64,000 nucleotides of DNA from Escherichia coli (GTDB lineage Bacteria; Pseudomonadota; Gammaproteobacteria; Enterobacterales; Enterobacteriaceae), in NCBI RefSeq assembly GCF_041248615.1, contig NZ_CP158426.1; one strand, 5' to 3'. Positions 44,776-63,990 of this stretch are shown here, in pieces (the first letter of the stretch is position 1; every line of letters starts with the position of its first letter). Position numbers and translations under genes: made by a program. The notes under the pieces are model-generated. The model was not told the DNA's origin. It saw only the letters and a program-made list of their open reading frames with translations, and made no database searches.

Positions 44776-44795
44776 AACTGTGTTTATATACAGTT
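44776..44795 (-). promoter_or_regulatory. LexA box of dinD
   Basis: The minus strand reads AACTGTATATAAACACAGTT (CTGT-N8-ACAG), 44 bp upstream of the dinD ATG. This matches the known dinD SOS box position. Confidence 0.85.
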
Positions 44796-44886
44796 GTAAG
44801 TATCTCACGTTCTCACTGCGCTGGGCAAAAAAACATCGCAAAATCTGGAGCAGGCACGCAAAACAGAATTGAATGTTGCGGGGAGG

Positions 44887-44953: not shown

Positions 44954-44974
44954 TTATTCAATATTCTGAATCTG
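44954..44974 (-). pseudogene. yicC: Displaced 3' tail of yicC (last six codons + stop) marking the left junction of the inserted element
   Basis: The minus frame reads ...AALKPILYK QIQNIE*. K-12 YicC ends ...REQIQNIE as I remember it. Similarity stops upstream of QIQNIE, so the identity (att core) is about 21 bp plus downstream sequence. Confidence 0.5.
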
Positions 44975-45442: not shown

Positions 45443-45730
45443 TTACTGTCTCTGGCAATCTTTATCGCGATAACGCCTGAAGTACCCTCTCGCTTCCTCA
45501 TCCATACCAAGAGCCGAATGAGTCCGCTTAACTGCCTGTCTTAAATCTCCGAATCTGTCTGTAGTTGCTGGTGGGCGTGCCGCCTTACGGATACATTCAG
45601 AGCGTCTGTTTGCTGCATGTTCACGTTCTTTATCGCCATCTGCCAGCATCATGACTTCTGCCCATCGTGCGGCAGCTCTCCGGTATAGCCCTTTTGACTC
45701 CAGCTCTTCAGCTTTCCTGTCCCTTATCAT
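45443..45730 (-). CDS. PerC-family transcriptional activator
   Basis: 95 aa. MIRDRKAEELESKGLYRRAAARWAEVMMLADGDKEREHAANRRSECI... is the PerC/Pch signature (AEELE.KGLYRRAA.RW). Confidence 0.75.
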   Translation of the reverse strand: MIRDRKAEELESKGLYRRAAARWAEVMMLADGDKEREHAANRRSECIRKAARPPATTDRFGDLRQAVKRTHSALGMDEEARGYFRRYRDKDCQRQ

Positions 45731-45766
45731 TTCTGCCTCTCAGATTATATAGATAAGCAAAAAGGT

Positions 45767-45887
45767 GTTGGTTCAGTTGGTTCAGTTGGTTCAATTTGTA
45801 AAGATCGTTGTTTTTATTGTGTTTTTTCTGAAATGTTGAACCAACATCAACTCATTTTGAACCAACACAGCCCAGCTCTGAACCAAC
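45767..45887. repeat. Iteron cluster A: 3x GTTGGTTCA (contiguous, 9-bp period) + AT-rich spacer + 3x inverted TGAACCAAC (21-bp period)
   Basis: Direct copies are at 45767, 45776 and 45785. Inverted copies are at 45837, 45858 and 45879. Positions 45760-45804 are 45/45 identical to the reverse complement of 54129-54173. Confidence 0.8.
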
Positions 45888-45989: not shown

Positions 45990-46430
45990 ATGGTCTTTGC
46001 AATGAGCAAATCTAATCTGATCGCGTTCCGCATCCCATCTGAATTGCAGGATGAGTTTAATCGGTCTGTTCTCGCTTCTGGAGGGGATAAAACCTCCTGG
46101 CTTGTTGATGCGATTCGCATGAAGCTGGGACAGCCGGAAAAGTCTATTGATTCACGAATGCTTGGGCTGGTGGAGCGCATGGAAAAAGCCGCAGCATCGC
46201 TTATTGCCGGAAAGCCGAACATCCCACCAAAGCCATATAACGAAACGGCAGTTATAAAGATCATTGCCGATACCATCCGACAGGGATTTGATAATGGGCG
46301 TGTGATAGCGGAACGGCTCAATGAAGCAGGCTACCAAACAAAAGCTGGTAAAGCGTGGGATAAAGACATTTACAGCGCGTGGAAGCGTCAGGGTAACAAT
46401 ATTAAAAGAATCAATACGCTGCTTCAGTAA
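45990..46430 (+). CDS. Ribbon-helix-helix-type DNA-binding protein with recombinase-like C-terminal domain
   Basis: 146 aa. The N-terminus SNLIAFRIPSELQDEFNRSVLASGGDKTSWLVDAIRMKL has an RHH pattern. The C-terminus ...IAERLNEAGYQTKAGKAWDKDIYSAWKRQ resembles the LN..G..T..G..W motif of the serine-recombinase 'recombinase' domain. The start may be 46002. Confidence 0.6.
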   Translation: MVFAMSKSNLIAFRIPSELQDEFNRSVLASGGDKTSWLVDAIRMKLGQPEKSIDSRMLGLVERMEKAAASLIAGKPNIPPKPYNETAVIKIIADTIRQGFDNGRVIAERLNEAGYQTKAGKAWDKDIYSAWKRQGNNIKRINTLLQ

Positions 46431-46459: not shown

Positions 46460-47437
46460 TCAATCGCTCCCTTTCCGCCCTTCAGCTACAGGGTCGTTGT
46501 CGGCGATAACAAAACCTAAGTCCTGAGAGAATCTCTCTCGTGGGAATCCTTTAGCAGGTAAACCCATTGAATCATATCCACATCCGGGAACATTTGGTTT
46601 AGAGTCAATAAGGTCTGCAATTTGCCGAAGCCATGTTGATCCCGGACCAAGTCGTTTAACTAAGTACCAGATAATACAGATCGCGCTAAAAATCCTCTCG
46701 CAACTCTCTGGATGGAGATTAAGTCCGTCAAAGTATTCATTATCCGGTACTGGAACTCGGGGATGCTTTCTATTCCATATTCTGGAATGGTGAGCGCAAC
46801 GATTCCTTATGAGATTAAGGCACTTCAACCATTTTGCAAATGTCTGCTTATTATCAATGCCAAAACGACGTATAATTTTCCCCTGCATATGACCATTAAG
46901 CATCGCATAATATTTAGACATCTGACCAAAATCCCAGGTCTCCACCGCCACCCAAAATGGAATCTCCTTGCCTTGGCTTCGATGCCATTCAATACAGTCA
47001 TCTCTGCTTTCGTCTAATTTTACTTTTTGCTTATACACCCAATGCTCGAAGGCAGATGAGAATTTTGGATTAATGTATTTTGATGACATGTAGGCAAGTG
47101 GATCATTGCGACCAACCTCATGCGCGATGACTGAACGAACATGAATCTCTATTCTTTCGATAGCATCAATCATCAAAAGACGCAGTTTTTTGTCAAAAAG
47201 ATATAGATCGTACGTCTTCTCGAAACTGGTACCAGCAAGAAATCGGTCTGTTCTGTACGAAAGACCTTTATCTGTTGTCGCAATAATTCTTGATGGGTAC
47301 CAAAAACCTGACAATCGATAATATCCAACCTGCGACAGCTTACGTATCGCACGATTTCGATCATTGATAATCATGCCACGTTCAAGTAGCAATCCTAGCA
47401 ATTCGTGATAGTCCTTATGAGGCTTTGCGGCAATCAT
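46460..47437 (-). CDS. Abi_2 (AbiD/AbiF-like) abortive-infection family protein
   Basis: MIAAKPHKDYHELLGLLLERGMII...YYRLSGFWYP...FWVAVETWDFGQMSKYY...LNLIRNRCAHHSRIWNR carries the hallmark R/N..AHH.R.WN motif. The track ORF starts 15 codons upstream. Confidence 0.8.
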   Translation of the reverse strand: MIAAKPHKDYHELLGLLLERGMIINDRNRAIRKLSQVGYYRLSGFWYPSRIIATTDKGLSYRTDRFLAGTSFEKTYDLYLFDKKLRLLMIDAIERIEIHVRSVIAHEVGRNDPLAYMSSKYINPKFSSAFEHWVYKQKVKLDESRDDCIEWHRSQGKEIPFWVAVETWDFGQMSKYYAMLNGHMQGKIIRRFGIDNKQTFAKWLKCLNLIRNRCAHHSRIWNRKHPRVPVPDNEYFDGLNLHPESCERIFSAICIIWYLVKRLGPGSTWLRQIADLIDSKPNVPGCGYDSMGLPAKGFPRERFSQDLGFVIADNDPVAEGRKGSD

Positions 47438-47910
47438 AGTGGCGAAACAAAAGATAATAAAAGGCCCGACCGTGAAACTCACATGCCTGAAATCGGCGGC
47501 GGAGAAACAGAGGATCGGGCTCGGTTGCCTGTAACTCTATCCGAAGTTATCCACATGTCAATGCACAGTTACTTAGGAAACTAACATAGATACTATCATC
47601 ACTCACGAAAAACCACTATATGTGGTTTTTATTCATATTGTTATCCACTACAGGCTGTGTCAATAACTTTTACCTATTAATTGGGTAATTTCTACATTTT
47701 CCTATGCTGGCTAGTTTCTCTACTGAAAAGTTGGCACTCCTTAATCGCTTTTCGGTTAATACTATCGGTCTTCATATTGCCAGCAGCATACGCCATCCGA
47801 TAATTTCTATGCTACGCGCGCGTACTTGTCGCAAAATATCAGGCAAAGGCCAGATTCAGAACGTCGTGATAACCACCAGCACAACATGAGATGTCATGTA
47901 ACGCGATTTA

Positions 47911-48770: not shown

Positions 48771-50876
48771 TTATTGAGCTTCCTTTTGCGATGCTTGTGC
48801 TGCTGTGGTCAGTGATTGTGTGACCGTACTGATCGCTCTGTCATATGCTGTGCTACCTTTTGGCGTATTTGCCAGACGTAACAAGGCATTTCGTATAACA
48901 GGGCTTTCGTATGCCTTCGCTGCTCCGCCTACGGCACCAGCAGCAGGAACAACAAACGCAGCCGTTTTTAGCATCCCCGCTAATACTGCTGCGTTTATGA
49001 TGCCACCACCAACTAACAATCCATAAAGCTGCTGACCATTTAAGTTTTGAACGTTCGCTTTTGCCGCGTGTCTTGTATCGTTGAGGTATTTAATAACGCC
49101 GTCCAGTTCCTTTCCATGTACGCCTTTAAAGAAAGTTGCTGATTGCTTCCTGTTCCGGTGTAACGCATTAATAAACTTCTCAACACTGATATTTCCAGAC
49201 GGATCAGTCGCCTTATCTACAGCATTCTGAACTATAGCTGCTCGTGCGTTTTGCCTACCATTGTCATCCAGAAGCCTGTAAAGCTGAGAACGTTCTGATG
49301 GGCTTTGGCTAAAAACGAGTTTTGTTACATCCTCAGGCGTGGCCTTGCCGCTGGCTATTGCCTTTTGAACGCGCGTTCTTCCCATCATGTCATTGAATTT
49401 AGACCATGAGCGATCAACCCTTGCCATATTAATGGCTTCGTCTGCTCCAAGATTTTTGGCTACGGCTTTTTTCATATCCGCCGTATATGCCTTGTAGATA
49501 ATATCGCTGGCTTTCTGGAGCGTATCTTTATCAACAGTGTCAGATGACGCCATAAATCGCTTTCGAAGATCGGTTCTGTTTTCCCTCGCCAGACGCAGGT
49601 CATTTGGTCCGCTGGTGATATCGTCTTTAAATTGCTGCAAGACTTTTACCGCGGCTCTATCCTGAGATTTGCCCGGGCGGCTTAACACGGCAATCTGATT
49701 GTCGATAGCTTTTACCGTGTTTGAGAGATCGACAGGGGTATCCCCCATAGCGTCAATTATGCGGTTATATCGCTTTCCTGCTGCCTCAATGAATTTTTGT
49801 TGCCCTTTAGTCGCAGATTCATAAAGCTGTTTATCAGAAATGCCACCCAGACCATCGCTAAATGTTCTGACTAAATTTTCTCGTGCTTGTTGTTGATTCA
49901 GCCGATTCTTACCGGTTCCAAAAAAAGGAACTCTTTCGCCTAATGTCTGAGCCTGACTCTGCATAAAGGTTTTATCTTTCAACATGTCACTGGTCATTAA
50001 CGGCAGATTTCTTTCCGATGCAAAGTCGACAGCAGCCTTTGCTTCAGGCGACATATCACCACGAACAGCCCTCGAAACCGCACTCGCTGTATTTTCCAGC
50101 CCCTTACCAATACCACCAATGCCAGCAGAAATTACCGTTTGTAACGGATCAATATCTTCTCCACCAGCAAGGCTGGTGGCTCCCTGTAGTGCTAAATCTG
50201 TAGCTGCTGATTTCCCTATGGCCCCCAGCACCGTTCCGGCCCTGCCCGCTGGTGTAAACGCCAGCGCATTAGCCAGAAACGATGCCACGTCTTGCGGCGA
50301 TAAACCCGGCTTGTTCAGAGCATAATCACCGGATGGCAGGGAAACGATAGTGTTACCCTTCTCATCCTGCCTTAATTTCGCTCCCATGCTCTGAAGAATC
50401 TTTTCCTGAGATGCGTCAGAGCCGAAAAGTTGAGACCATCGAGCTTTTAGAGCATCCATGCTGAGTGAGGTTAACTCTGGGGCAAGGTCGACATTTTGCA
50501 GTCTCTCCATCTCTGGAGTCATTCGGCTTTCGCCTGTTATAGCATCGCGCATCGCAGCCCCAAGACTGGCTCCCTGTTCTGCTGAACGCTCAAGCCCCTC
50601 TCTTTGCTGAGTAGCTAACTTTGCATACCCTGACGCAAGAGAATTATCAGATGATGTATGTTGAATATTTTGAGTTGCTGATTGGTATCGGTCTATTTCA
50701 TTCGTTGATGGTAGTGGATAGGCAGCATAAAAAGCCTGCTTAGCCTGCTCTACACTTTCTCCGGCTTGCGGGGCAACGACTTCATTAAAGTATTGCTCCT
50801 GAGCCTGCGCTTTTTGTTCTGGTGCTAACGCCTGATACTGTGGAGAGGCGATAACATCTTTCCATGCTTTAGCCAT
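48771..50876 (-). CDS. P22 gp16-like ejection (DNA-transfer) protein candidate
   Basis: 701 aa and the last gene of the operon. It has ...KPGLSPQDVASFLANALAFTPAGRAGTVLGAIGKSAATDL... and a Gly/Ala-rich hydrophobic segment near the C-terminus (LLVGGGIINAAVLAGMLKTAAFVVPAAGAVGGAA). Position and size class match P22 gene 16. Confidence 0.5.
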   Translation of the reverse strand: MAKAWKDVIASPQYQALAPEQKAQAQEQYFNEVVAPQAGESVEQAKQAFYAAYPLPSTNEIDRYQSATQNIQHTSSDNSLASGYAKLATQQREGLERSAEQGASLGAAMRDAITGESRMTPEMERLQNVDLAPELTSLSMDALKARWSQLFGSDASQEKILQSMGAKLRQDEKGNTIVSLPSGDYALNKPGLSPQDVASFLANALAFTPAGRAGTVLGAIGKSAATDLALQGATSLAGGEDIDPLQTVISAGIGGIGKGLENTASAVSRAVRGDMSPEAKAAVDFASERNLPLMTSDMLKDKTFMQSQAQTLGERVPFFGTGKNRLNQQQARENLVRTFSDGLGGISDKQLYESATKGQQKFIEAAGKRYNRIIDAMGDTPVDLSNTVKAIDNQIAVLSRPGKSQDRAAVKVLQQFKDDITSGPNDLRLARENRTDLRKRFMASSDTVDKDTLQKASDIIYKAYTADMKKAVAKNLGADEAINMARVDRSWSKFNDMMGRTRVQKAIASGKATPEDVTKLVFSQSPSERSQLYRLLDDNGRQNARAAIVQNAVDKATDPSGNISVEKFINALHRNRKQSATFFKGVHGKELDGVIKYLNDTRHAAKANVQNLNGQQLYGLLVGGGIINAAVLAGMLKTAAFVVPAAGAVGGAAKAYESPVIRNALLRLANTPKGSTAYDRAISTVTQSLTTAAQASQKEAQ

Positions 50877-52297
50877 TAATCACCCCATAGTGAAGAAAAG
50901 TTACTGCTGGCTGCTGGCTGTGATACCTGCTCAGATTGCGGCAATGTCTGCGACGAAGAAGCAGTTCCTCTGTCAACTGCTGAAATAACCCGCAAAGCAT
51001 CATAAGTTCGACCAGAAGCAGCTTTCAGCGAATTGAACTGGTTTTCCATCTTCCGGCGCTTGGTATCAATGGTTTTTGTGGAGTCGCCAGGCTGAGGGAA
51101 ATACATTTGATAATATTTTGACATTTCAGCAGGTGCGATAGCTGCCCCTGTTTCCTGACGGAGTATTGCCATTATTGCGTCATTAGCATTAACAACGTAT
51201 TGCTGCTCTGCTGGGCTGAGCGTTAAGTTAGCCAGCGTCCCATTACCCAAAGCATTATTAATGATCGCCACTCGCTGTGGGCTAAGCTGGTCTTTCAGTG
51301 TATCTATTGAATCAAGAGCATCCCTAACCCTGTATGCAAATCCAGCAGCTTTTTTAGCCCCATCTGGCGACTTTTCCATGATCTTTTGGGCTGTTGGCAA
51401 AGCTATTGGACGAAACCCATCTCCAGATATTGGCTGGTTTAGTTTTCCCTGCTCTTCACTTCCGTCTGTGTAGTATTTTGTGACAGTGCCATCATCGTTT
51501 TCTCTAACACTCATTAATTTTTTGGCGTTTGTATTAATTCCAGCCGCTGCCGCAAATGCCGCCGCCCCCTCTGGATCCGCCTTTAACATTTGAGCGTACT
51601 GATTGTAATTCTGCATTGCTGCTGTTGGTGCATATGCTGACGTTAACGCATTTGCTCGGTTAATATCCTGCCCTCTCGCCTGAAGTGCTTCGCTGGCCTG
51701 ATTGCTGCGGATTGTCTCTGCCAACTTGCCACGTTCAATATCCCGACCTTCCATTTGATCTTTGATATCGAAATACTTCTCATGACCGAGAGAAAACAGT
51801 GCCATACTACCAGCAAGCCGCTGGAATCCCTGTGGATCATTAACATGCATTTCGGCAACAGACTCAGGAGAAATTCCCAGGCGACGCATTTCATCTTCGT
51901 TATCTGCTATGAATTTTCCAAATGCCCCAGTTCCGAGCGAAGATGCGATTTGAGCACTAGTCGCAAGATGACCAATAGAATTTCTCTGGTCGTCATCAAT
52001 AAAGCCCATCCCTTTCTGAACGCTTTCAAATTCTTCTGGATACTCAGAAATAAGACTGCGCATTTTGTTTCTGTCTCCAGACTCAAAAGCCCCGGCATAT
52101 GCTTTCTGAAACTCTGCTTTACGCTGTTGTTGACGTGCCTGCTGATTAATCTCAGCAACGCCTCTTAGCCCCTGTAGCGCCATTAAACCTACGTTTGGCT
52201 GCTGCTGATACTGCACAGGCTGAGGAACGGAAGAACGAGGAGCATTATCATTTTGCGGTGCCATGCTAGGCAGCCCGCCAAGTTGCCATGTCGCCAT
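50876..52297 (-). CDS. P22 gp20-like ejection protein candidate
   Basis: 473 aa (P22 gp20 is about 471 aa from memory). The N-terminus is Gln-rich. It overlaps both neighbours by 1 nt. Confidence 0.5.
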   Translation of the reverse strand: MATWQLGGLPSMAPQNDNAPRSSVPQPVQYQQQPNVGLMALQGLRGVAEINQQARQQQRKAEFQKAYAGAFESGDRNKMRSLISEYPEEFESVQKGMGFIDDDQRNSIGHLATSAQIASSLGTGAFGKFIADNEDEMRRLGISPESVAEMHVNDPQGFQRLAGSMALFSLGHEKYFDIKDQMEGRDIERGKLAETIRSNQASEALQARGQDINRANALTSAYAPTAAMQNYNQYAQMLKADPEGAAAFAAAAGINTNAKKLMSVRENDDGTVTKYYTDGSEEQGKLNQPISGDGFRPIALPTAQKIMEKSPDGAKKAAGFAYRVRDALDSIDTLKDQLSPQRVAIINNALGNGTLANLTLSPAEQQYVVNANDAIMAILRQETGAAIAPAEMSKYYQMYFPQPGDSTKTIDTKRRKMENQFNSLKAASGRTYDALRVISAVDRGTASSSQTLPQSEQVSQPAASSNFSSLWGD

Positions 52298-52974
52298 TAG
52301 AATCCAAGCCCCCCAACAAGACCAATAAGCCCACCACCAATAGCGCCGGCCGCAGTTCCTATTCCAGGAACAACGGAACCAAGTTGCGCACCCGCTAAAG
52401 CGCCTGATGCTGCCCCACCAATACCACGCGCAAGACTGGATGGCTGCTGCGCCTGACCTGCACGAATAGCGCCAAGCCCCTGCAAGAGTTGTCCGGTATT
52501 ATTGGCGTAGTTTTGCCCTGCCGTTGCCTGCCCTGATGCCGCATTCATCCCGACATTTAGCAGGTTTCCATAATTTTGCATTTGCCCACTAAGCCAATTG
52601 TTATAAAGCATGGGCGCAATGGAAGATAACTGGTTACTGGTAGCTGTTGAGCCAAGCCCCCCGGTAGCTTCTGCTGAGACAAGGTTCTGATAACGGGCCT
52701 GATCTGCCTGTGTTTTATATAAACCAGAACCAAAGAAATCATTCGCGGCTTTATTCTGCCCTTCCAGAGTCATCAGTCCTTGTAGTTGTTGTAAAGCAGG
52801 CAATCCGACTTCTGCATACGGCTTGAGATTATTCATCACCGTATTCCACTGCTCGCGCTGCAAATCAATTGCCTGCTGCTGGGCCTTCGCCTGAGCTTTA
52901 GAGGCACCACCATCACCGCCTTTTTCGTATACGGCACGATTGAGATGTTTATGAGCTATATGGGTAATTAACAT
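52297..52974 (-). CDS. P22 gp7-like ejection protein candidate
   Basis: 225 aa (P22 gp7 is about 229 aa from memory). ...YEKGGDGGASKAQAKAQQQAIDLQREQWN... and the Gly-rich C-terminal tail GIGTAAGAIGGGLIGLVGGLGF resemble gp7-type DNA-transfer proteins. Confidence 0.55.
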   Translation of the reverse strand: MLITHIAHKHLNRAVYEKGGDGGASKAQAKAQQQAIDLQREQWNTVMNNLKPYAEVGLPALQQLQGLMTLEGQNKAANDFFGSGLYKTQADQARYQNLVSAEATGGLGSTATSNQLSSIAPMLYNNWLSGQMQNYGNLLNVGMNAASGQATAGQNYANNTGQLLQGLGAIRAGQAQQPSSLARGIGGAASGALAGAQLGSVVPGIGTAAGAIGGGLIGLVGGLGF

Positions 52975-53429
52975 TCGCTGAATTCCTTATATTGTTGCCG
53001 AGTTAACTGATAAAGCGTTACGCCGACGGGTTTACCACATCTGATATAAGCATCATCAAGGTGACCAACACGGGTAGCGCCAAGCAAACGGATAATTGCC
53101 CGTCCGTATTTCGTGGTGTCAGGAACCATAGTGATGCTGTTAAGGAATGGTGAGTTTTCGAGAAGCCATTTGCAGAATAATCGATGCCCTTGCAGTGCAT
53201 ATTCACCACGGAATCCGGGGTCGTACACCGCATGGCATTCAACAATGCTATGCCAGAAGTTACGCACTTCATGAACGCCAGCCAGCACCAATCCTTCGTA
53301 GATGCCGAGATATACCGCATCAGGCTTGATGTAGTACGTGTGCCCCGGCTCAACAATATTTTCGGTATTGCCAGGATCGTTAAGAAAGGCCTGTAATCGC
53401 ACAGGGTTATCAATAAATTTTAGTTCCAT
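52968..53429 (-). CDS. 153-aa protein in the position of P22 gene 14
   Basis: It precedes the gp7/20/16-like genes with a 7-nt overlap. MELKFIDNPVRLQAFLNDPGNTENIVEPGHTYYIKPDAVYLGIYEG... looks like a small alpha/beta (acetyltransferase-like) protein. The assignment rests on synteny only. Confidence 0.4.
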   Translation of the reverse strand: MELKFIDNPVRLQAFLNDPGNTENIVEPGHTYYIKPDAVYLGIYEGLVLAGVHEVRNFWHSIVECHAVYDPGFRGEYALQGHRLFCKWLLENSPFLNSITMVPDTTKYGRAIIRLLGATRVGHLDDAYIRCGKPVGVTLYQLTRQQYKEFSEC

Positions 53430-53445
53430 GCGATGCCATCCATTT

Positions 53446-53607
53446 TCACATACAGCCTGCCAGCGCCTTATCTATTAACCCTCGAGCAATTTCATGCAGA
53501 GTTGGCGCTACTCCAATTCCTGATTTTTTACGCTGCTCTTCCTGAATTTTCTTTATCGCTTCCATTTGCTTCTCACTTATCAATACCGGCTTTACTGAAA
53601 TAGCCAT
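53446..53607 (-). CDS. 53-aa ribbon-helix-helix-like protein, first gene of the operon
   Basis: Below the ORF-track cutoff. ATG lies 5 nt after AAGGGGG. The sequence is MAISVKPVLISEKQMEAIKKIQEEQRKKSGIGVAPTLHEIARGLIDKALAGCM, with a strand-helix-helix pattern like Arc/Mnt. Confidence 0.55.
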   Translation of the reverse strand: MAISVKPVLISEKQMEAIKKIQEEQRKKSGIGVAPTLHEIARGLIDKALAGCM

Positions 53608-53620
53608 AACGCCCCCTTAG

Positions 53621-53646
53621 AACTGTATAAAACAACAGTTATTATA
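53621..53646 (-). promoter_or_regulatory. Perfect -10 (TATAAT) immediately followed by a LexA box (AACTGTTGTTTTATACAGTT)
   Basis: The minus strand reads TATAAT (53646-53641) and then a 20-mer with CTGT-N8-ACAG (53640-53621). It lies 13 nt upstream of the RBS and ATG of the 53-aa gene. The -35 is poor. Confidence 0.65.
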
Positions 53647-53702
53647 GTTTCACAAATCGCAATATTCATCATCGTAATTGCAAAATATGAAACAGATAGC
53701 AC

Positions 53703-53735
53703 AAAAAAATGCCACCGCTCAGTAGCTGGTGGCAT
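53703..53735 (-). terminator. Rho-independent terminator ending the primase operon
   Basis: The minus strand has ATGCCACC-11 nt loop-GGTGGCAT followed by T6-7. Confidence 0.7.
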
Positions 53736-54055
53736 CGTTCTGTGTGTCAGGTTTTGACAGGTTTTTTATGGACTCTAAAAACTATATTTATGGTGTCGCA
53801 TTACCCTTCACGGCAGGCGCTTTTCAGTTCTGCCCTTGCTTCTGGCTCCATTGGTAATTTGATTCGCGATCAGCTATGCGGATGGTTTGCTGAACAGGCA
53901 TAACAACTTCTCAGTGGCTGTTTTCTGAACTACGAAAATTTCGTAGTGCTCACTTTCAAAAACGTCACGCCCTTGTACACAGGATTTTACGAAAGTCTCG
54001 TAAAACACTCTCTGATGCCAGCCAGGTGTTGTGCGCATCAATTCAGTCACATTGT

Positions 54056-54166
54056 GTTGGTTCAAAATACCGTGTTGTTGGTTCAGTGTTGGTTCAATAA
54101 AAAGAATAAAATCCTTATAAAACAATACTCTTTACAAATTGAACCAACTGAACCAACTGAACCAAC
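54056..54166. repeat. Iteron cluster B: 3x GTTGGTTCA + AT-rich spacer + 3x TGAACCAAC (contiguous), mirror image of cluster A
   Basis: GTTGGTTCA occurs at 54056, 54077 and 54088. TGAACCAAC occurs at 54140, 54149 and 54158. The cluster ends 26 bp from the stop of the primase-helicase gene. Confidence 0.8.
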
Positions 54167-54191
54167 ACCTTTTCTACGCACATGAAGAAGC

Positions 54192-56951
54192 TCATTCTTC
54201 AGATGAGTTATAATCTCCTGGCTGGTAATTGAGTACATAAACGTTTATTTGTCGTCCCTGAATACGTGGTGATTTTCTTTGGTATCCACGACCGCTGTTT
54301 GGTGGGGTTAGCATCCCGGCTTTTTTCAACACTTCAGCAAACTGTTTTGCGTTGAAACCACATGCGATCTCCTTTTCAAATGTGGCCGGGAATGTGTAGA
54401 AAATCATTGGGCTTTCGTCATGTTCTCCACGCTGACGGTATCCGGCTAAATCTTTGATGGGCAAATCTGCCGGGCTGTATGGAAATGGTGCAAAACGGCT
54501 AAGCCCATAGGCATTAAGAAATGCCTCCGTTTGTTCAATAATCTGCTGATGCTCTTTGTTACCTGTGCCGAACTCGCGCAACCATGCGTTATAGCTGTGC
54601 TGTATCGCATCACGGCATGTCTGAGCATCCCAGCCTGTTACAACCTCGCCTAACAACAATGCGGCCTCCAGAATGGCAAATCGCGCGGCTACACGGTGAA
54701 CCTGCTCACCATAATCGGATGGGATCAGGCTTCTCCATCTGCTTTCGCAGTCACGAACGGTTTTAATAGCCTGTTGCTGGTGGTCTGCCAGCCATTTAAT
54801 CCACTCACGCCCGGACGCGCCGTGGTGATGCTGGTAAGCGTCTTTCAGTGCGTCTGCGTGCTGTTTTCCGTTCTGGTAATCGTGAAAGCGTACTGCTTTA
54901 CTCAACGGAATATTCAGCAGTCGCACCAGTTGCCCGGCTTTGGTTTTTCGCCCGGAAGTAGCGATAAATGTTTCTAAATCCATTTCTCCGGTGCTGATTG
55001 CCACTGTACGCCAGCGTTTTAGATCCCGGTTTCCACCATCTTTAGCGCCTTGCAGTTTCCCTACACCGTTAAATAACGCATAGGCAGACTGTGAAACGCT
55101 GACAGGATCAGCGCCCTGACCAACTTCATCAAGCGGCATTAGTCCGTCATTGTGGGCGGCGGCCTCATTTGCCAGCCCCAGCGCGGTTCCGTACCACGTC
55201 AGCCGCAGTAAATCAGGGTTGCCGTATAAGCTGCTCGCCACGTTTGCCGTGGTGGTCTTACCTGCGCTCGACTGCTCATAGAAATGAATGCCGAACCCGT
55301 CAGCGCCCACCAGCCCAATCAATGGCGCTGCCAGTGCTGCGCCGATCCCGGTCATCATTGAATAGTTACCAAAGGCCAGACGCGCCACGTTATCACGCCA
55401 GCTTTTCGCGCTCCCTGAGACGGTATATCCGGCTGCGGCTGAGCTTCTCCCGCTGAACAGCACAGGATTTTCAGGTGTTCCGATGATTTCCCCATCAGGC
55501 ATGATGTACGCTCCGCATTGCCAGCCAGTGGCATGAGCAACACGCCACAATTCACGAGAGCCACTGCGTTGTAGCCAGTCTGCCAGTATTGCTCTGAGGC
55601 TGCTTTTGGTCGTGACATTTACCCCACCAGCTTTAAGTGTGCGCCATCCTTCACGTTCACCAATATCAGCCAGTGGAATGGCAGCGGTTGTCGGCGTTTC
55701 AGAACCAAACGACAGCCAGCGAAGAATGAGATACTGGTCTTTATCGTCTCTGCCAGTACCGATAACGCTTAACGGAGAACATAACCAGCTTTCGTTATTG
55801 ATGATTTCTCCACTCTGGCTGTCAGCTCTCGGAGATACCCAATAAATACCATCCTCGCGGCTTTCTATTCTTGGTTTCAGTGGATCGGTATCCATAACCT
55901 TAAAATCGCTTCCCTCAATGGTCTGTGGCTCCTGTTTCACGCCATTACCCTGTGGTTGGTACATTGACTTATTGAACGCTTCTGTGGCGCATTTAATGCC
56001 GTGTTTTTGGTGGTAATCATTCCAGTCTGCTTTGTGATCTGTCGGGGGTAATGCCACCCATCCAGAAACAGATAAAGCTGCTTTTTCTGCTGCTATTCTC
56101 CCCGTGTTTTGTCTTCCTTCGCTGTGGTCGTTATCCGCAGCAATGATGATTTGTGCTGAAGGAAATTTATCCCGCAGTACCTGGGCGACATATAACAGGT
56201 TCCCGGCATCAATCGCCGCCACTGTCAGCGCCTCTGGACGAATTAAATGGGCAGATAATGCCGTTGCCAGCCCTTCTGCGATTAAGATGCTCTGTGTTGT
56301 TTCTGGTGCGTTTATGGCGTGATATGCCCCCCGCTTTGCTGAACCTGTCAGGAGTCTTTTTTCACCATGTGAGGTAATAGTCTGTGCTGCTGTGACTGCG
56401 CCGGATTTATCCACCAGCGCCAGCAACAGAGATCCATCGGGCAACACGGGGAATGTAAAATCACCTACCCCTTTCGCAACCAGATAATCAGATTTGCCGT
56501 TTACAGCCTTTCTGCGCATGTCATCAAACTGACGGGAAAACGTATCCCGTCTTTGTTGTTCGTCCTTCTCTGCCCTTTTCAGGCGCTCCTGTTCGCGTCG
56601 CTGGCGCTCGGTTTCCAGTTGTTCCCGTTTCTGGCTGGTGGCTTCTGGTGTTTCCGTTGTCCGGTAATCAATACCCAGAACATCAGCGGCAAGAAGCGCC
56701 GCCTCTGTTGTGTCGCAGTTATTTACGCGTTTAATTAAATCCAGCCCATCACCAGCGCCGCACTGATTACAGATGAAGCTACCGCGCCCGTTGTCATCGA
56801 ACCGGAATCGATCTTTGCCCCCACATGCAGGGCAGGGAGCATGACGGCGCGGAGAGTCAGGGACATTTATGTTCAGGCAGCCCAGCACATGAGGCCAGTT
56901 GTTTTCAGACGCACTGATAACCTGACGGATAAGATCAATGTTTCGCATCAC
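54192..56951 (-). CDS. P4 alpha-like primase-helicase (Zn-ribbon + Toprim + DUF927/SF3-type NTPase)
   Basis: 919 aa with Zn-binding CPACGGKDRFRFDD...FICNQCG. Toprim motifs are ILIAEGLATALS and IIIAADNDHSEGRQNTG. Walker A is YEQSSAGKTTT. Confidence 0.85.
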   Translation of the reverse strand: MMRNIDLIRQVISASENNWPHVLGCLNINVPDSPRRHAPCPACGGKDRFRFDDNGRGSFICNQCGAGDGLDLIKRVNNCDTTEAALLAADVLGIDYRTTETPEATSQKREQLETERQRREQERLKRAEKDEQQRRDTFSRQFDDMRRKAVNGKSDYLVAKGVGDFTFPVLPDGSLLLALVDKSGAVTAAQTITSHGEKRLLTGSAKRGAYHAINAPETTQSILIAEGLATALSAHLIRPEALTVAAIDAGNLLYVAQVLRDKFPSAQIIIAADNDHSEGRQNTGRIAAEKAALSVSGWVALPPTDHKADWNDYHQKHGIKCATEAFNKSMYQPQGNGVKQEPQTIEGSDFKVMDTDPLKPRIESREDGIYWVSPRADSQSGEIINNESWLCSPLSVIGTGRDDKDQYLILRWLSFGSETPTTAAIPLADIGEREGWRTLKAGGVNVTTKSSLRAILADWLQRSGSRELWRVAHATGWQCGAYIMPDGEIIGTPENPVLFSGRSSAAAGYTVSGSAKSWRDNVARLAFGNYSMMTGIGAALAAPLIGLVGADGFGIHFYEQSSAGKTTTANVASSLYGNPDLLRLTWYGTALGLANEAAAHNDGLMPLDEVGQGADPVSVSQSAYALFNGVGKLQGAKDGGNRDLKRWRTVAISTGEMDLETFIATSGRKTKAGQLVRLLNIPLSKAVRFHDYQNGKQHADALKDAYQHHHGASGREWIKWLADHQQQAIKTVRDCESRWRSLIPSDYGEQVHRVAARFAILEAALLLGEVVTGWDAQTCRDAIQHSYNAWLREFGTGNKEHQQIIEQTEAFLNAYGLSRFAPFPYSPADLPIKDLAGYRQRGEHDESPMIFYTFPATFEKEIACGFNAKQFAEVLKKAGMLTPPNSGRGYQRKSPRIQGRQINVYVLNYQPGDYNSSEE

Positions 56952-59316: not shown

Positions 59317-59379
59317 GTGGCAGCCTCCTTGATTGATGGTTTATAGCCACCGCCGGAGGTCCTAAGCTCGCTGGCGGTG

Positions 59380-59450
59380 GACTGTACAGGGTTAGGACTA
59401 CTGGCAATCAAGGAAACCAGCCTGACCGAAGTCAGCCCCATACAGCCCAC
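59380..59450 (-). ncRNA. Candidate P4 CI-like immunity RNA (seqB-bearing segment); boundaries approximate
   Basis: The minus transcript contains GGGGCUGACUUCGGUCAGGCUGGUUUCCUUGAUUGCCAGUAGUCCUAACCC. The motifs GAUUGCC and GUCCUAA are complementary to an upstream site (59514-59536) and a downstream site (59359-59365). CCUUGAUUG is complementary to the SD region of the Icd-like gene. Confidence 0.35.
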
Positions 59451-59480
59451 CATTGATAAGGTGTGCGTGTGCGCCGATAC

Positions 59481-59501
59481 AAAAAAAGACGCTGGCGCGT
59501 C
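59481..59501 (-). terminator. Short GC hairpin + U7 inside the leader (candidate immunity-controlled terminator)
   Basis: The minus strand reads GACGC-gcca-GCGTC-TTTTTTT. It lies between the seqA-like and seqB-like elements. Confidence 0.4.
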
Positions 59502-59932
59502 ATGTATCGCCTCGATTGCCTGCGGGGTCCTAATCCCGGCACCCGTTTTATGAGGTGCCTTATAACCATAAACCGTGTTGCCGCATAACGGCAAGCTCTT
59601 TTTTATGGACTCCGAAAACTCACTATTGGAAGAACCAGATGCACAATACATCGCGCTCATTTCGTTAACGTCACGCGCATGGACGAAGGTTTTTGTGGAG
59701 TCACTACGCGAGAAGAGAAAGCCATCTACGACCAGAAATTCTCTGGCGCAGCCGCTGACCTTCTCAACGCTAACACCATCGACCGTAATTTCTGACATGG
59801 TTAAGGCATCCGCTCCTACCACCAGCAAATGACAAACTTTGCTTGTATCTGCTGTATTAATGCCTGACTTTGCTGTCATATTGCTGGATTTTGGCGACAT
59901 ACCAGCCAGTGAAAATATCTTCTTCTGGACGG

Positions 59933-60953: not shown

Positions 60954-61385
60954 TTAGGCGGCGTTAAACGCGTCCGGGTAGAGTTTCAGAATGTCGGCAA
61001 TTTCCTGCTGAGAAAGTCCGTTGTGATCATTTATGTTCGCAAGATGGTTAACATGAGTGATCACTTTCAGAACATCACCACGGCAGGAGAAACGGTAGCG
61101 AAGGTGTGTTCCGATACCATCAGGATTCTTTTCGTCGATACGCTCCAGAGTGATTCCAAGCTGGCGTTCTAACTCTGTTGCATAGTTACGACCAGAAGAC
61201 AGACGGCAGTAGCGAAGAATGTCATTTTCTGTCCATCCCTCTATACCAGTACGCAGCATATAGACTCGGGCACGATGCTTTTTCGGTGTGCGCTTTGGTG
61301 CTTGAAGGGATTTTGTAAGGGGCGTAATATCAGATACGCGAATATCTGAATTAGCCGCCTGTAATGGGCGGTTTTTCTTTTCCAT
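60954..61385 (-). CDS. Hypothetical protein (143 aa)
   Basis: Overlaps the AlpA-like gene stop by 1 nt. The N-terminus is basic. No family recognised. Confidence 0.5.
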   Translation of the reverse strand: MEKKNRPLQAANSDIRVSDITPLTKSLQAPKRTPKKHRARVYMLRTGIEGWTENDILRYCRLSSGRNYATELERQLGITLERIDEKNPDGIGTHLRYRFSCRGDVLKVITHVNHLANINDHNGLSQQEIADILKLYPDAFNAA

Positions 61386-61603
61386 CAGGCCACCTTCCCG
61401 CGGCGTTCTGCCAGCCAGTTATTAATTTCCACCGCATCAAACGCAGTCACGTTATCTGTTAGCTTCACTGGGCGTGGAAGAGTGCCATTTTTAACCCATC
61501 TATCAATAGTAGGCAGTGAAACACCTAGCAATTCCGGCATGCGAAAGCGACGGATGTATCCAGTTGTTGGGATAGCTGATGATGCTGGCTTGTGTGCTGT
61601 CAT
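61385..61603 (-). CDS. AlpA/Vis-like excisionase-type regulator
   Basis: 72 aa. ...YIRRFRMPELLGVSLPTIDRWVKNGTLPRPVKLTDNVTAFDAVEINNWL is the AlpA family signature. Confidence 0.8.
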   Translation of the reverse strand: MTAHKPASSAIPTTGYIRRFRMPELLGVSLPTIDRWVKNGTLPRPVKLTDNVTAFDAVEINNWLAERRGKVA

Positions 61604-62074: not shown

Positions 62075-62725
62075 TTAGTCGAGATCGTGGACAGCTAATA
62101 AAGCCCGTGAGATTTTTTCTAGGAATGTGGCTTTTGCTATTCCTTTATGGGATATCCCTTCATCCTTGATTAAGGTTTCTATGTCACGGTATATAGCTGT
62201 GCGATTAGGTTTCCCATTTTGGATGTAGGAAGATGAGCCTGATTTTTTTATCAGCAGATGTACTATCAACCCCATCATTTTCATTGTCCCGTTTTCCTCA
62301 TCCTGCTTTCTATGCTGCCCACGTCCGCTGCGGTTGGTTTCTTTGATGTAGTTTACTAACTGGAGTCCTCCAAGGTTTCGGGCTTTTTCTTCCCAGCCCT
62401 TGGTGCCACGCAAATCATCAATCGCTTCTGATATTTTCTGAACAATTATTTCTGGTGTATTTGTGTCAATAAATGGGTAAGAAGCTAAGAAAATATCAAG
62501 GGCATGGCAAGGCTCGTCTTTACTAGTTTTTTCACCTCTGTACACCTTGATAGCTCTGGCAAGATGAGTTCTGACAAAATCGACATATTCGAAATTTTCC
62601 TCAGGCACATCGCTAATGCGCATAGATGGGTTTAGGCCAGCCAAGGCCACAGCCATTTCATGAGGGGTAATCGATACAGATGAACAAAGCCGTTCGATTG
62701 GCGATTTTCTCAAGATGTTGTTCAC
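62075..62725 (-). CDS. Hypothetical 216-aa protein coupled to the integrase gene
   Basis: The GTG start overlaps the integrase stop (GTGA). GC is lower than in neighbouring genes. No family recognised. The alternative start is Met24. Confidence 0.5.
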   Translation of the reverse strand: MNNILRKSPIERLCSSVSITPHEMAVALAGLNPSMRISDVPEENFEYVDFVRTHLARAIKVYRGEKTSKDEPCHALDIFLASYPFIDTNTPEIIVQKISEAIDDLRGTKGWEEKARNLGGLQLVNYIKETNRSGRGQHRKQDEENGTMKMMGLIVHLLIKKSGSSSYIQNGKPNRTAIYRDIETLIKDEGISHKGIAKATFLEKISRALLAVHDLD

Positions 62726-63990
62726 ATTTGCCTCCGGGCTTTATCGAATGGCGTTACGTTGTAGTCTTTCCCGCTTTCCAGTGCCACCAGCAGATCAGCC
62801 CACTGTGCCAGCGCAGCTTTACGCTCATCAAAATACTGATGGCGGTTATAAATCCCCTCCACACCCTTAATGCGATGATTGAGGCATCGTTCCGCTACGA
62901 CAGGATCAACACCCAATGCTGCTAAATGAGTACGTGCGGTACGCCGGAAGTCGTGAATCGTGAAATTAGGCACATCCGGCATTTCGGCGCGAACCTTAGC
63001 CAGTGCTACGGGTAAAGTGCTTTCCTGAATATGTGGGATCATTCTGTTTTGCATCTTCCTGGCTGGAAGCACCCATGCGCTATTACATGAAAAGGTGTGT
63101 AGCTCTCTCAACCATTCAACGGCTGGGGAAGGTAGAGGTATATCAATAGGGTCTCCGTTTTTGCTGCGTTCTTCCGGCAAATGCCATACCGCACCATCTA
63201 AATCAAACTCTTCCCATCGTGCGGCGCATAACTCCATCTTACGAACGCATAGTGCCAGCAATAGCTTAAATGTCAGTTCGTTCTGGCGGCTGAATCCTTT
63301 TGCGGTGCGCATAGCTTCGAATAGCCTGATAAGCTCATCGCGAGTTAGCCAACGGTCGCGGGAAACCTCTTTACCACCAGCATCAGATACTTCAAACGCT
63401 GAACAAGGGTTTATCTCCAGAGCGTGGCGTTTTATCCCATAGTCAAAGATACGGCGTGTCCAGCGTAATACATCTGTTGCTATCGTTGGTGCTCCTCGGT
63501 CAACGATACCTTTCAACATGTCGTCAATGTGGCGTGGCTTAACGTCCTCCACCTTCATATGCCCAATGCAGGGGTTAATATCCTTATCAATTCTCCGGCG
63601 AAGGATATCGGGATGTTTCCATCTTGGAAGTATCTGGCGCTCGAAGTATTCGGCGGCCAGATCTGAAACGCGCATGGCGTTTTTCTCAGCCTCCATTTTT
63701 GCCAGTGCTTCAGCTTTTCGTTCCTGTTTCTCTGCTGCTACGTCATAGCCAAGAGCAACTCTGGCTGACAGCTCTTTTGCTGTTTCTCTGGCTTTTGATA
63801 GTGACAGTTCGGAGTAAGAGCCTATAACCATAGCCCGCTGCTTTCCTGCGAGCTTATAGCGGAATCGCCAGAACGGGACTGTGTAGTTTTTTGGGTAGCA
63901 AATATAAAGGCCGTTGCCGTCTGCCTTGCCATCAAATCTGTCTCCCGCCTTTATCCATGCGCGGATCTGCATATCTGTGAGTTTTGGCAT
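62722..63990 (-). CDS. P4-type tyrosine integrase of the yicC-inserted element
   Basis: 422 aa starting MPKLTDMQIRAWIKAGDRFDGKADGNGLYICYPKNYTVPFWRFRYKLAGKQR... The catalytic region is HDFRRTARTHLAALG...LNHRIKGVEGIYNRHQY. It starts 10 bp from the window edge. Confidence 0.9.
   Translation of the reverse strand: MPKLTDMQIRAWIKAGDRFDGKADGNGLYICYPKNYTVPFWRFRYKLAGKQRAMVIGSYSELSLSKARETAKELSARVALGYDVAAEKQERKAEALAKMEAEKNAMRVSDLAAEYFERQILPRWKHPDILRRRIDKDINPCIGHMKVEDVKPRHIDDMLKGIVDRGAPTIATDVLRWTRRIFDYGIKRHALEINPCSAFEVSDAGGKEVSRDRWLTRDELIRLFEAMRTAKGFSRQNELTFKLLLALCVRKMELCAARWEEFDLDGAVWHLPEERSKNGDPIDIPLPSPAVEWLRELHTFSCNSAWVLPARKMQNRMIPHIQESTLPVALAKVRAEMPDVPNFTIHDFRRTARTHLAALGVDPVVAERCLNHRIKGVEGIYNRHQYFDERKAALAQWADLLVALESGKDYNVTPFDKARRQM

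Follow-up and report, generated by a model that had tools for sequence, protein, structure and literature searches.

The replication origins of SaPIs and Gram-negative PICIs are composed of opposed iterons flanking an AT-rich stretch, and are positioned directly 3′ of the rep gene (PMC9371898, PMC6092414). In both, the iterons are read by the C-terminal domain of Rep (PMC9371898, PMC6092414), which is of the DNA-binding winged-helix type. The origin of EcCICFT073 supports replication with its own Rep (Fillol-Salom 2018, PMC6092414). It is formed by 11 GGTAGA copies in one block of about 225 bp with mirrored outward-facing tandem pairs at its ends, and we found no distant second iteron cluster in EcCICFT073. 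In experiments, Kapi1, a P22-like phage, served as helper for the induction and transfer of the island EcCIMP1 (Pick et al. 2025, PMC11773190). The paper that describes it contains no treatment of the origin or of iterons (PMC11773190), and a search of the literature accessible to us returned no description of a split PICI origin. A two-site arrangement occurs in P4, the annotated record of which has crr 46 bp after the alpha gene and ori at a distance of 4.7 kb. P4 requires the two sites in cis and brings them together through looping by alpha.

The window analyzed here is a 64-kb stretch of E. coli DNA. It contains 12 exact copies of the 9-mer GTTGGTTCA, every one located in one of two sites, at positions 45767–45887 (cluster A) and 54056–54166 (cluster B), with the orientations +,+,+,−,−,− in each. 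The expectation is 0.65 copies (100 dinucleotide shuffles; the largest count was 3, and 12 was reached by 0/100), which confirms the 12 copies in two sites reported by the first-pass annotation. A literature search with the iteron string gave no paper.

Clusters A and B are built alike, from three tandem iterons with a 9-bp step, a 43-bp spacer, and three inverted iterons. Positions 45760–45804 are identical to the reverse complement of 54129–54173 at 45 of 45 nucleotides, and the inverted repeat widens to 55 nt at 95% (45760–45814 and 54119–54173). The tandem triplets of both clusters, which are separated by 8.3 kb, face outward, and the clusters are therefore true mirror images. The earlier description of cluster A as an inverted six-iteron copy of cluster B is thus borne out, and its 45/45 inverted identity is reproduced. 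The inner iterons are spaced by 21 and 21 bp in cluster A, compared with 21 and 11 bp in cluster B. The AT content of the spacer is 77% in cluster A and 84% in cluster B, in an island that has 53%. In a nearest-neighbour stability scan, spacer B ranks fourth for low stability among the distinct 43-nt segments of the island (z=+3.5), and spacer A belongs to the top 2% for instability (z=+2.2 against all 43-nt windows of the island). Consensus promoter scans of the surroundings of both clusters called no sigma-70-like promoter around A or B. The parts of the two clusters are as follows.

45760–45887, no strand: cluster A, putative distal origin half; six exact iterons; mirror of cluster B
45767–45793, plus strand: outer tandem triplet of cluster A, three GTTGGTTCA copies with a 9-bp step, 36 bp from the perC start codon
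45794–45836, no strand: AT-rich spacer of cluster A, 43 bp, candidate unwinding region; 77% AT, z=+2.2
45837–45887, minus strand: three inner inverted iterons of cluster A, spaced by 21 and 21 bp
54056–54173, no strand: cluster B, putative proximal origin half, 25 bp from the pri-rep stop codon
54056–54096, 54097–54139 and 54140–54166: spaced iterons, AT-rich spacer (84% AT) and tandem iterons of cluster B, respectively

Both clusters are located inside a 19.2-kb EcCIMP1-like PICI between dinD and yicC (E. coli NRZ14408, NZ_LT599825.1). The island encodes a tyrosine integrase, an AlpA-family regulator, antA/B, ash, an icd-like gene, and a 919-aa fused primase-helicase, with perC at the far end. 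It has an exact length of 19,226 bp, and its attR is positioned about 200 bp past the end of the window. The main features of the island in the window are listed below.

44954–44974, no strand: attL core, 21 bp, defined by the junction of the circular record NZ_LT599831.1 against both chromosomal flanks
45443–45730, minus strand: perC-family regulator gene, just outside cluster A (Pfam PerC, E 2.6e-33; annotation)
45990–46430, plus strand: 146-aa gene with an RHH-like N-terminus, 102 bp inward of cluster A
46460–47482, minus strand: Abi_2 gene, variable cargo (Pfam Abi_2, E 2.3e-52)
48771–53607, minus strand: 53-aa ORF and operon of P22 gp14- (DUF2824), gp7-, gp20- and gp16-like genes (Pfam, PHROGs)
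53695–53736, minus strand: terminator-like hairpin, downstream of pri-rep and cluster B
54192–56951, minus strand: pri-rep, 919-aa fused primase-helicase, presumed iteron-binding initiator (Pfam Zn_Ribbon_Prim, Toprim_3, DUF927)
61385–61603, minus strand: alpA-family regulator gene (Pfam Phage_AlpA)
62722–63990, minus strand: tyrosine integrase gene (Pfam Arm-DNA-bind_3, Phage_int_M, Phage_integrase)

The island has the features by which Gram-negative PICIs are recognized: int at one end, AlpA, pri-rep, transcription in one direction, att sites, and a length of about 10–20 kb. It departs from the further rule that PICIs contain no phage structural genes, as it carries the P22 gp14-, gp7-, gp20- and gp16-like genes. 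Phage-type structural genes are a trait of the EcCIMP1 group. The island family, which is widespread in E. coli, is present in roughly 370–570 of 5,426 complete genomes. Rfam matches to a C4 antisense RNA (80 bits, 59370–59457) and to isrK (63 bits, 59482–59558), both on the minus strand, lie within a stretch whose annotation is an 'ash family' gene. They correspond to an immunity RNA of the P1 C4 / P4 CI type, and the island thus mixes P4-like control elements with a PICI-like replicon.

Free forms of the island are represented by two circular records. NZ_LT599831.1 ('phage_14408_2'), from the same isolate, is a 19,226-bp circle of the island closed exactly at the att core. NZ_CP148430.1, a 12,152-bp circular 'plasmid' of strain Z1323CEC0013, is a shorter relative with its origin halves 1.9 kb apart. 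The chromosome of Z1323CEC0013 also matches the 3′ end of pri-rep, at two places. The free circular records suggest spontaneous excision, and perhaps replication, of the island.

The Pri-Rep protein is composed of parts with different affinities. Its N-terminus aligns with P4 alpha over 359 residues at 33% identity (E 2e-41), and no similarity to P4 alpha was detected past residue ~362. Among PDB entries, Pri-Rep matches 8tch best ('Pathogenicity island protein', E 1.4e-11), with the Cch helicase 5dgk in second place. Judged by these matches, the helicase/initiator part of Pri-Rep is SaPI-Rep-like (DUF927) and not P4-like. A DUF927 helicase 69% identical to Rep residues 339–908 is encoded by Klebsiella phage P12620-1 (PQ569648.1, 98.6–101.2 kb). 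In this 106-kb phage-labelled record, about 12 GAACCAAC iterons form a contiguous origin behind the helicase gene; the record may represent a phage-plasmid that shares the replicon or a co-assembled satellite.

We compared the downstream region of pri-rep in 77 fetched loci with primase-helicase relatives, one genome per species. Repeats were scanned in the approximately 60 loci that have sequence past the 3′ end of the gene, and in nearly all of them an iteron cluster starts 26–60 bp behind the gene. The origin is contiguous in about 29 relatives from other Enterobacterales, with approximately 12 iterons in one block of 260–320 bp. The order within the block is a tandem triplet, an AT-rich spacer, three spaced copies, about 35 bp, three spaced copies, a spacer, and an opposite-facing triplet. 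In 13 relatives, from genera that include Lonsdalea, Chimaeribacter, Leclercia, Cedecea, Serratia, and Citrobacter, the second half is located 0.35–9 kb downstream and retains the outward-facing triplet. The flank ACCTTTTT.CTTATATA of the distal half is common to the split relatives, to cluster A, and to the second half of contiguous relatives. Two genomes of Lonsdalea britannica differ by a 5.86-kb indel positioned exactly between the halves. Since EcCICFT073 and the approximately 29 relatives have their iterons in one block, the known PICI origin corresponds to the contiguous form, and the window contains the split form.

About 12 relatives have the proximal half only within the 10 kb fetched, and the distal half may therefore be dispensable or located further away. 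Several contiguous relatives have a GC-rich spacer in the second half, and that half may therefore not melt. A conserved motif, CTGGCTGGCA, which is not an iteron, is present at about 54013–54022 in the window. Lineages that differ in their iteron word have it after the third spaced iteron, and in many loci, such as our L004, L009, L017, L023, and L033, it is located about 35 bp beyond the proximal half. A locus of Yersinia pekkanenii (NZ_CQAZ01000049.1) has clusters of 10–12 iterons at −5.7 kb, −1.1 kb, and +51 bp from the end of the primase gene; its protein match is abnormally long, and it may contain tandem or nested elements. Descent of cluster A from a second, inverted island was considered and rejected, as there is no primase remnant beside cluster A and the second-half flank ACCTTTTT.CTTATATA is conserved.

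The iteron word varies by lineage and includes GAACCAAC, AGACAACA, TAACCCGT, GAACCGAC, GGGATAAGT, and others. The distal half always has the local word, such as GGGATAAGT at 7.8 kb in a Citrobacter locus (L064) and AACCGAC at 0.4 kb in a Limnobaculum locus (L043). A short segment near the C-terminus of Rep, at residues ~885–900, reads QRKS-PRI.GRQ.N in all GAACCAAC loci and QGRV--RE.GRQIR in all AGACAACA loci, with further versions for further words. This covariation, which is correlational and partly phylogenetic, is as would be expected if the segment reads the iterons. A profile search of the PDB gave no match for the Rep C-terminus, and its AlphaFold single-sequence model has a pLDDT of 49.

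Both halves are present in all 13 inspected E. coli islands with an intact pri-rep, 1.9 to 9.05 kb apart. Each half contains six iterons, nearly all of them exact, and no cluster has more than one mismatch. The sampled islands come from two insertion sites and differ in cargo, and part of the sample was picked evenly down the hit list. EcCIMP1 of E. coli MP1, one of the 13, has its two clusters 8.4 kb apart. A synthetic fused-origin query identified a contiguous origin in 0/551 E. coli genomes, and the split state is therefore fixed in E. coli. The decayed tRNA-Thr island of E. coli ET729 (NZ_CP100927.1) has kept cluster A, the RHH gene, and perC, and has lost pri-rep and half B; a lone cluster can thus survive as debris.

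The DNA between the halves combines conserved and variable genes. Two of them, the 53-aa ORF and the 146-aa RHH gene, are family genes that are conserved from genus to genus, and in split relatives the RHH gene is nearly always the direct neighbour of the distal half. The 146-aa RHH-like protein has no Pfam match. It was considered as an Rpp packaging protein of the EcCICFT073 kind and rejected: it has no PDB match to RppC and is not an Rpp homologue. The P22-like ejection genes, the operon of which matches P22-like phages including Kapi1 and Sf6, are present in 10/13 of the inspected E. coli islands. Among the islands without the full set, one has IS3 instead, the 12-kb circle has none, and others show partial loss. 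The variable stretch is located between the gp16-like and RHH genes and is occupied by Abi_2 here, and by ImmA/IrrE, IS66, or others elsewhere. The perC gene is positioned outside the pair of halves in E. coli, and inside, beside the proximal half, in Lonsdalea, Chimaeribacter, and Pantoea. The expectation that cargo varies while the clusters stay agrees with the 13/13 E. coli islands, which retain both clusters around differing contents. The more general proposal of the first-pass annotation, that everything inside the pair is cargo and everything outside is backbone, is too simple and holds only roughly; it fails for the conserved 53-aa ORF and RHH gene, and for perC where it is inside in Lonsdalea, Chimaeribacter, and Pantoea. 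In the approximately 29 contiguous relatives the accessory region is not bracketed at all, because the halves are adjacent there.

The ejection-like operon has several further features. The gp16-like gene encodes 701 aa here, compared with a 906-aa lytic transglycosylase form in other islands. The island is a satellite with its own P22-type ejection genes, and the helper of EcCIMP1 is a P22-like phage. On the minus strand at 53607–53660, a TATAAT is directly followed by CTGTTGTTTTATACAG (CTGT-N8-ACAG, LexA-box-like), AGGGGG, and the ATG of the 53-aa ORF. A matching CTGT-N8-ACAG motif, paired with it by the repeat finder, is located just upstream of dinD at 44776–44800. The ejection-gene operon may be under SOS control. 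Two palindromes TACGA-N5-TCGTA, 57 bp apart at 53931–53945 and 53988–54002 (0.03 expected by chance), are located in the 320-bp non-coding stretch between half B and the terminator-like hairpin, and may form an operator pair for some regulator.

We propose that cluster A is probably the Rep-bound distal part of a mirror-symmetric two-part origin of this EcCIMP1-like PICI, an interpretation drawn from repeat architecture and comparative genomics. Opposed iterons around an AT-rich region, as in SaPI and PICI origins, are present in both A and B; the position directly 3′ of rep is occupied by B, whereas A is 8.3 kb off. Each half would be a SaPI/PICI-type unit of tandem iterons, an AT-rich unwinding stretch, and inverted iterons. 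After excision and circularization, the C-terminal domain of Pri-Rep would bind the iterons of both halves, and the bound Rep would melt the AT-rich spacers and self-load, as proposed for SaPI Reps. The non-canonical position of cluster A, and a spacer that is a weaker unwinding candidate than that of B (z=+2.2 vs +3.5), argue against A as an origin half. Cluster B is probably the main start, because it has the better unwinding site and the canonical place. Cluster A could provide a second start, or act as a cis helper that loops to B as in P4 ori–crr. In E. coli, the downstream module of the 53-aa ORF, ejection genes, defence cargo, and RHH gene is located between the halves, and the origin is therefore split by 2–9 kb.

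The strongest competitor to an origin function of cluster A is that Rep binds it mainly for regulation, with the cluster serving as a perC/RHH operator tied to Rep levels or as a handcuffing site similar to P1 incA. We consider this unlikely. The perC start codon is 36 bp away from the tandem triplet, and 102 bp separate the inner iterons from the start of the RHH gene, which in split relatives nearly always abuts the distal half; spacer A is less AT-rich than spacer B, and it is well established for iteron plasmids that additional iteron sets titrate or pair initiators. However, no sigma-70-like promoter was called around cluster A, and its neighbours change while the cluster stays, as in ABU 83972 and EcCIMP1, which have no RHH gene beside A. 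Furthermore, perC is beside the proximal half in Lonsdalea and Pantoea, and in about 29 relatives the equivalent half is just a part of one contiguous origin. Cluster A could instead be a relic without function, left by the duplication or rearrangement of an origin and kept only through recency, which we regard as improbable. Recent copying or gene conversion could account for the 45-bp perfect identity of A and B, and the decayed ET729 island has cluster A without any primase, but the distal half occurs in distant split genera, each time with the iteron word of its lineage, and six iterons per half with at most one mismatch per cluster are maintained in 13/13 E. coli islands.

Two further readings assign the repeats to other machinery, and both appear very improbable to us. 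The repeats might be sites of another protein, for example of the 146-aa RHH protein in a centromere-like or pac/cos packaging role. An RHH-type gene is indeed located beside cluster A, and the island has no recognisable terS or Rpp (PMC11773190). Nevertheless, the repeats persist where the RHH gene is missing, they are always at the 3′ end of pri-rep with a word that tracks the Rep C-terminus, and a search of the island for a lambda-type cosN gave chance-level near-matches only. We give the least credence to the idea, raised by the first-pass annotation, that the long inverted repeat serves inversion or exchange of the 8.3-kb segment. A 45–55-bp inverted repeat is long enough for occasional RecA-dependent inversion, and the cargo between the halves does vary among islands. 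However, when all complete E. coli genomes were searched with a synthetic chimeric junction representing the inverted state, 570 genomes matched parts of it and 0/570 matched over at least 80%. The segment has a single orientation in the 13 inspected islands and in the free circle, gene order and orientation are unchanged in split relatives from other genera, and Pfam and PHROGs identified no invertase or other recombinase gene in or beside the segment. Rare RecA-dependent flipping is conceivable, but nothing suggests that flipping is the function of the repeat.

Within the two-part origin, we speculate that the halves act as one origin over 8 kb, with Rep hexamers at A and B pairing by looping, although we consider this more doubtful than plausible. 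If looping occurs, the accessory module would be a closed loop inside the initiation complex, and the centre of the origin would be a place where the arrival of cargo is tolerated and perhaps even favoured. The assembly of a self-loading MCM-like helicase would then proceed from two distant half-sites, which would offer a natural system for studying the positioning of double hexamers. PICI and SaPI origins have been described as a compact block after rep, and a split origin in a widespread E. coli satellite family would place accessory genes, such as P22-like ejection genes and defence genes including Abi_2, inside the origin. If both halves act, they would constrain models of how the self-loading Rep helicase is assembled, and would provide a mechanistic bridge between PICI origins and the puzzle of P4 ori/crr. 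Engineers of PICI delivery vehicles would also learn which sequences to keep and which places tolerate cargo.

The island resembles SaPIs and PICIs in its int, alpA, and pri-rep genes, and in the opposed iterons around an AT-rich stretch 3′ of the Rep gene. It differs from them in that a second half, a near-perfect mirror with its own AT-rich spacer, is located 8.3 kb from rep with genes in between. EcCIMP1 belongs to the same family and has the same gene order, with int, pri-rep, the ejection-like genes, and perC in succession. It is, however, inserted at tRNA-Thr, whereas the island in the window is located at dinD–yicC and contains Abi_2 and the 146-aa RHH gene.

The island shares with P4 two separated clusters of one short iteron, one of them just 3′ of the primase-helicase gene, as well as an alpha-type primase domain (Zn ribbon and Toprim), a C4/CI-type RNA, and icd-like and ash genes. 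In contrast to P4 alpha (D5_N/DUF5906/Pox_D5), the helicase/origin-binding part of Pri-Rep is DUF927. The iteron word GTTGGTTCA differs from the type-1 repeats of the P4 record. P4 crr consists of two direct 120-bp repeats, and P4 ori is positioned upstream of the operon, whereas the two sites of the island are mirror images, both downstream of rep, and are fused in relatives of the island. The likeness to P4 ori/crr pointed out by the first-pass annotation therefore extends to the layout and the homologous primase domain, and ends at the helicase, the iteron word, and the arrangement. On account of these three differences, the first of which concerns the initiator as well as the helicase, the origin does not belong to the P4 family. 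A single initiator acting at two sites is also found at P1 incC/incA and at R6K gamma with its distant alpha and beta origins, where looping or pairing controls or activates initiation. The initiator families are unrelated, and P1 and R6K need the host DnaA and DnaB, whereas PICI Reps self-load.
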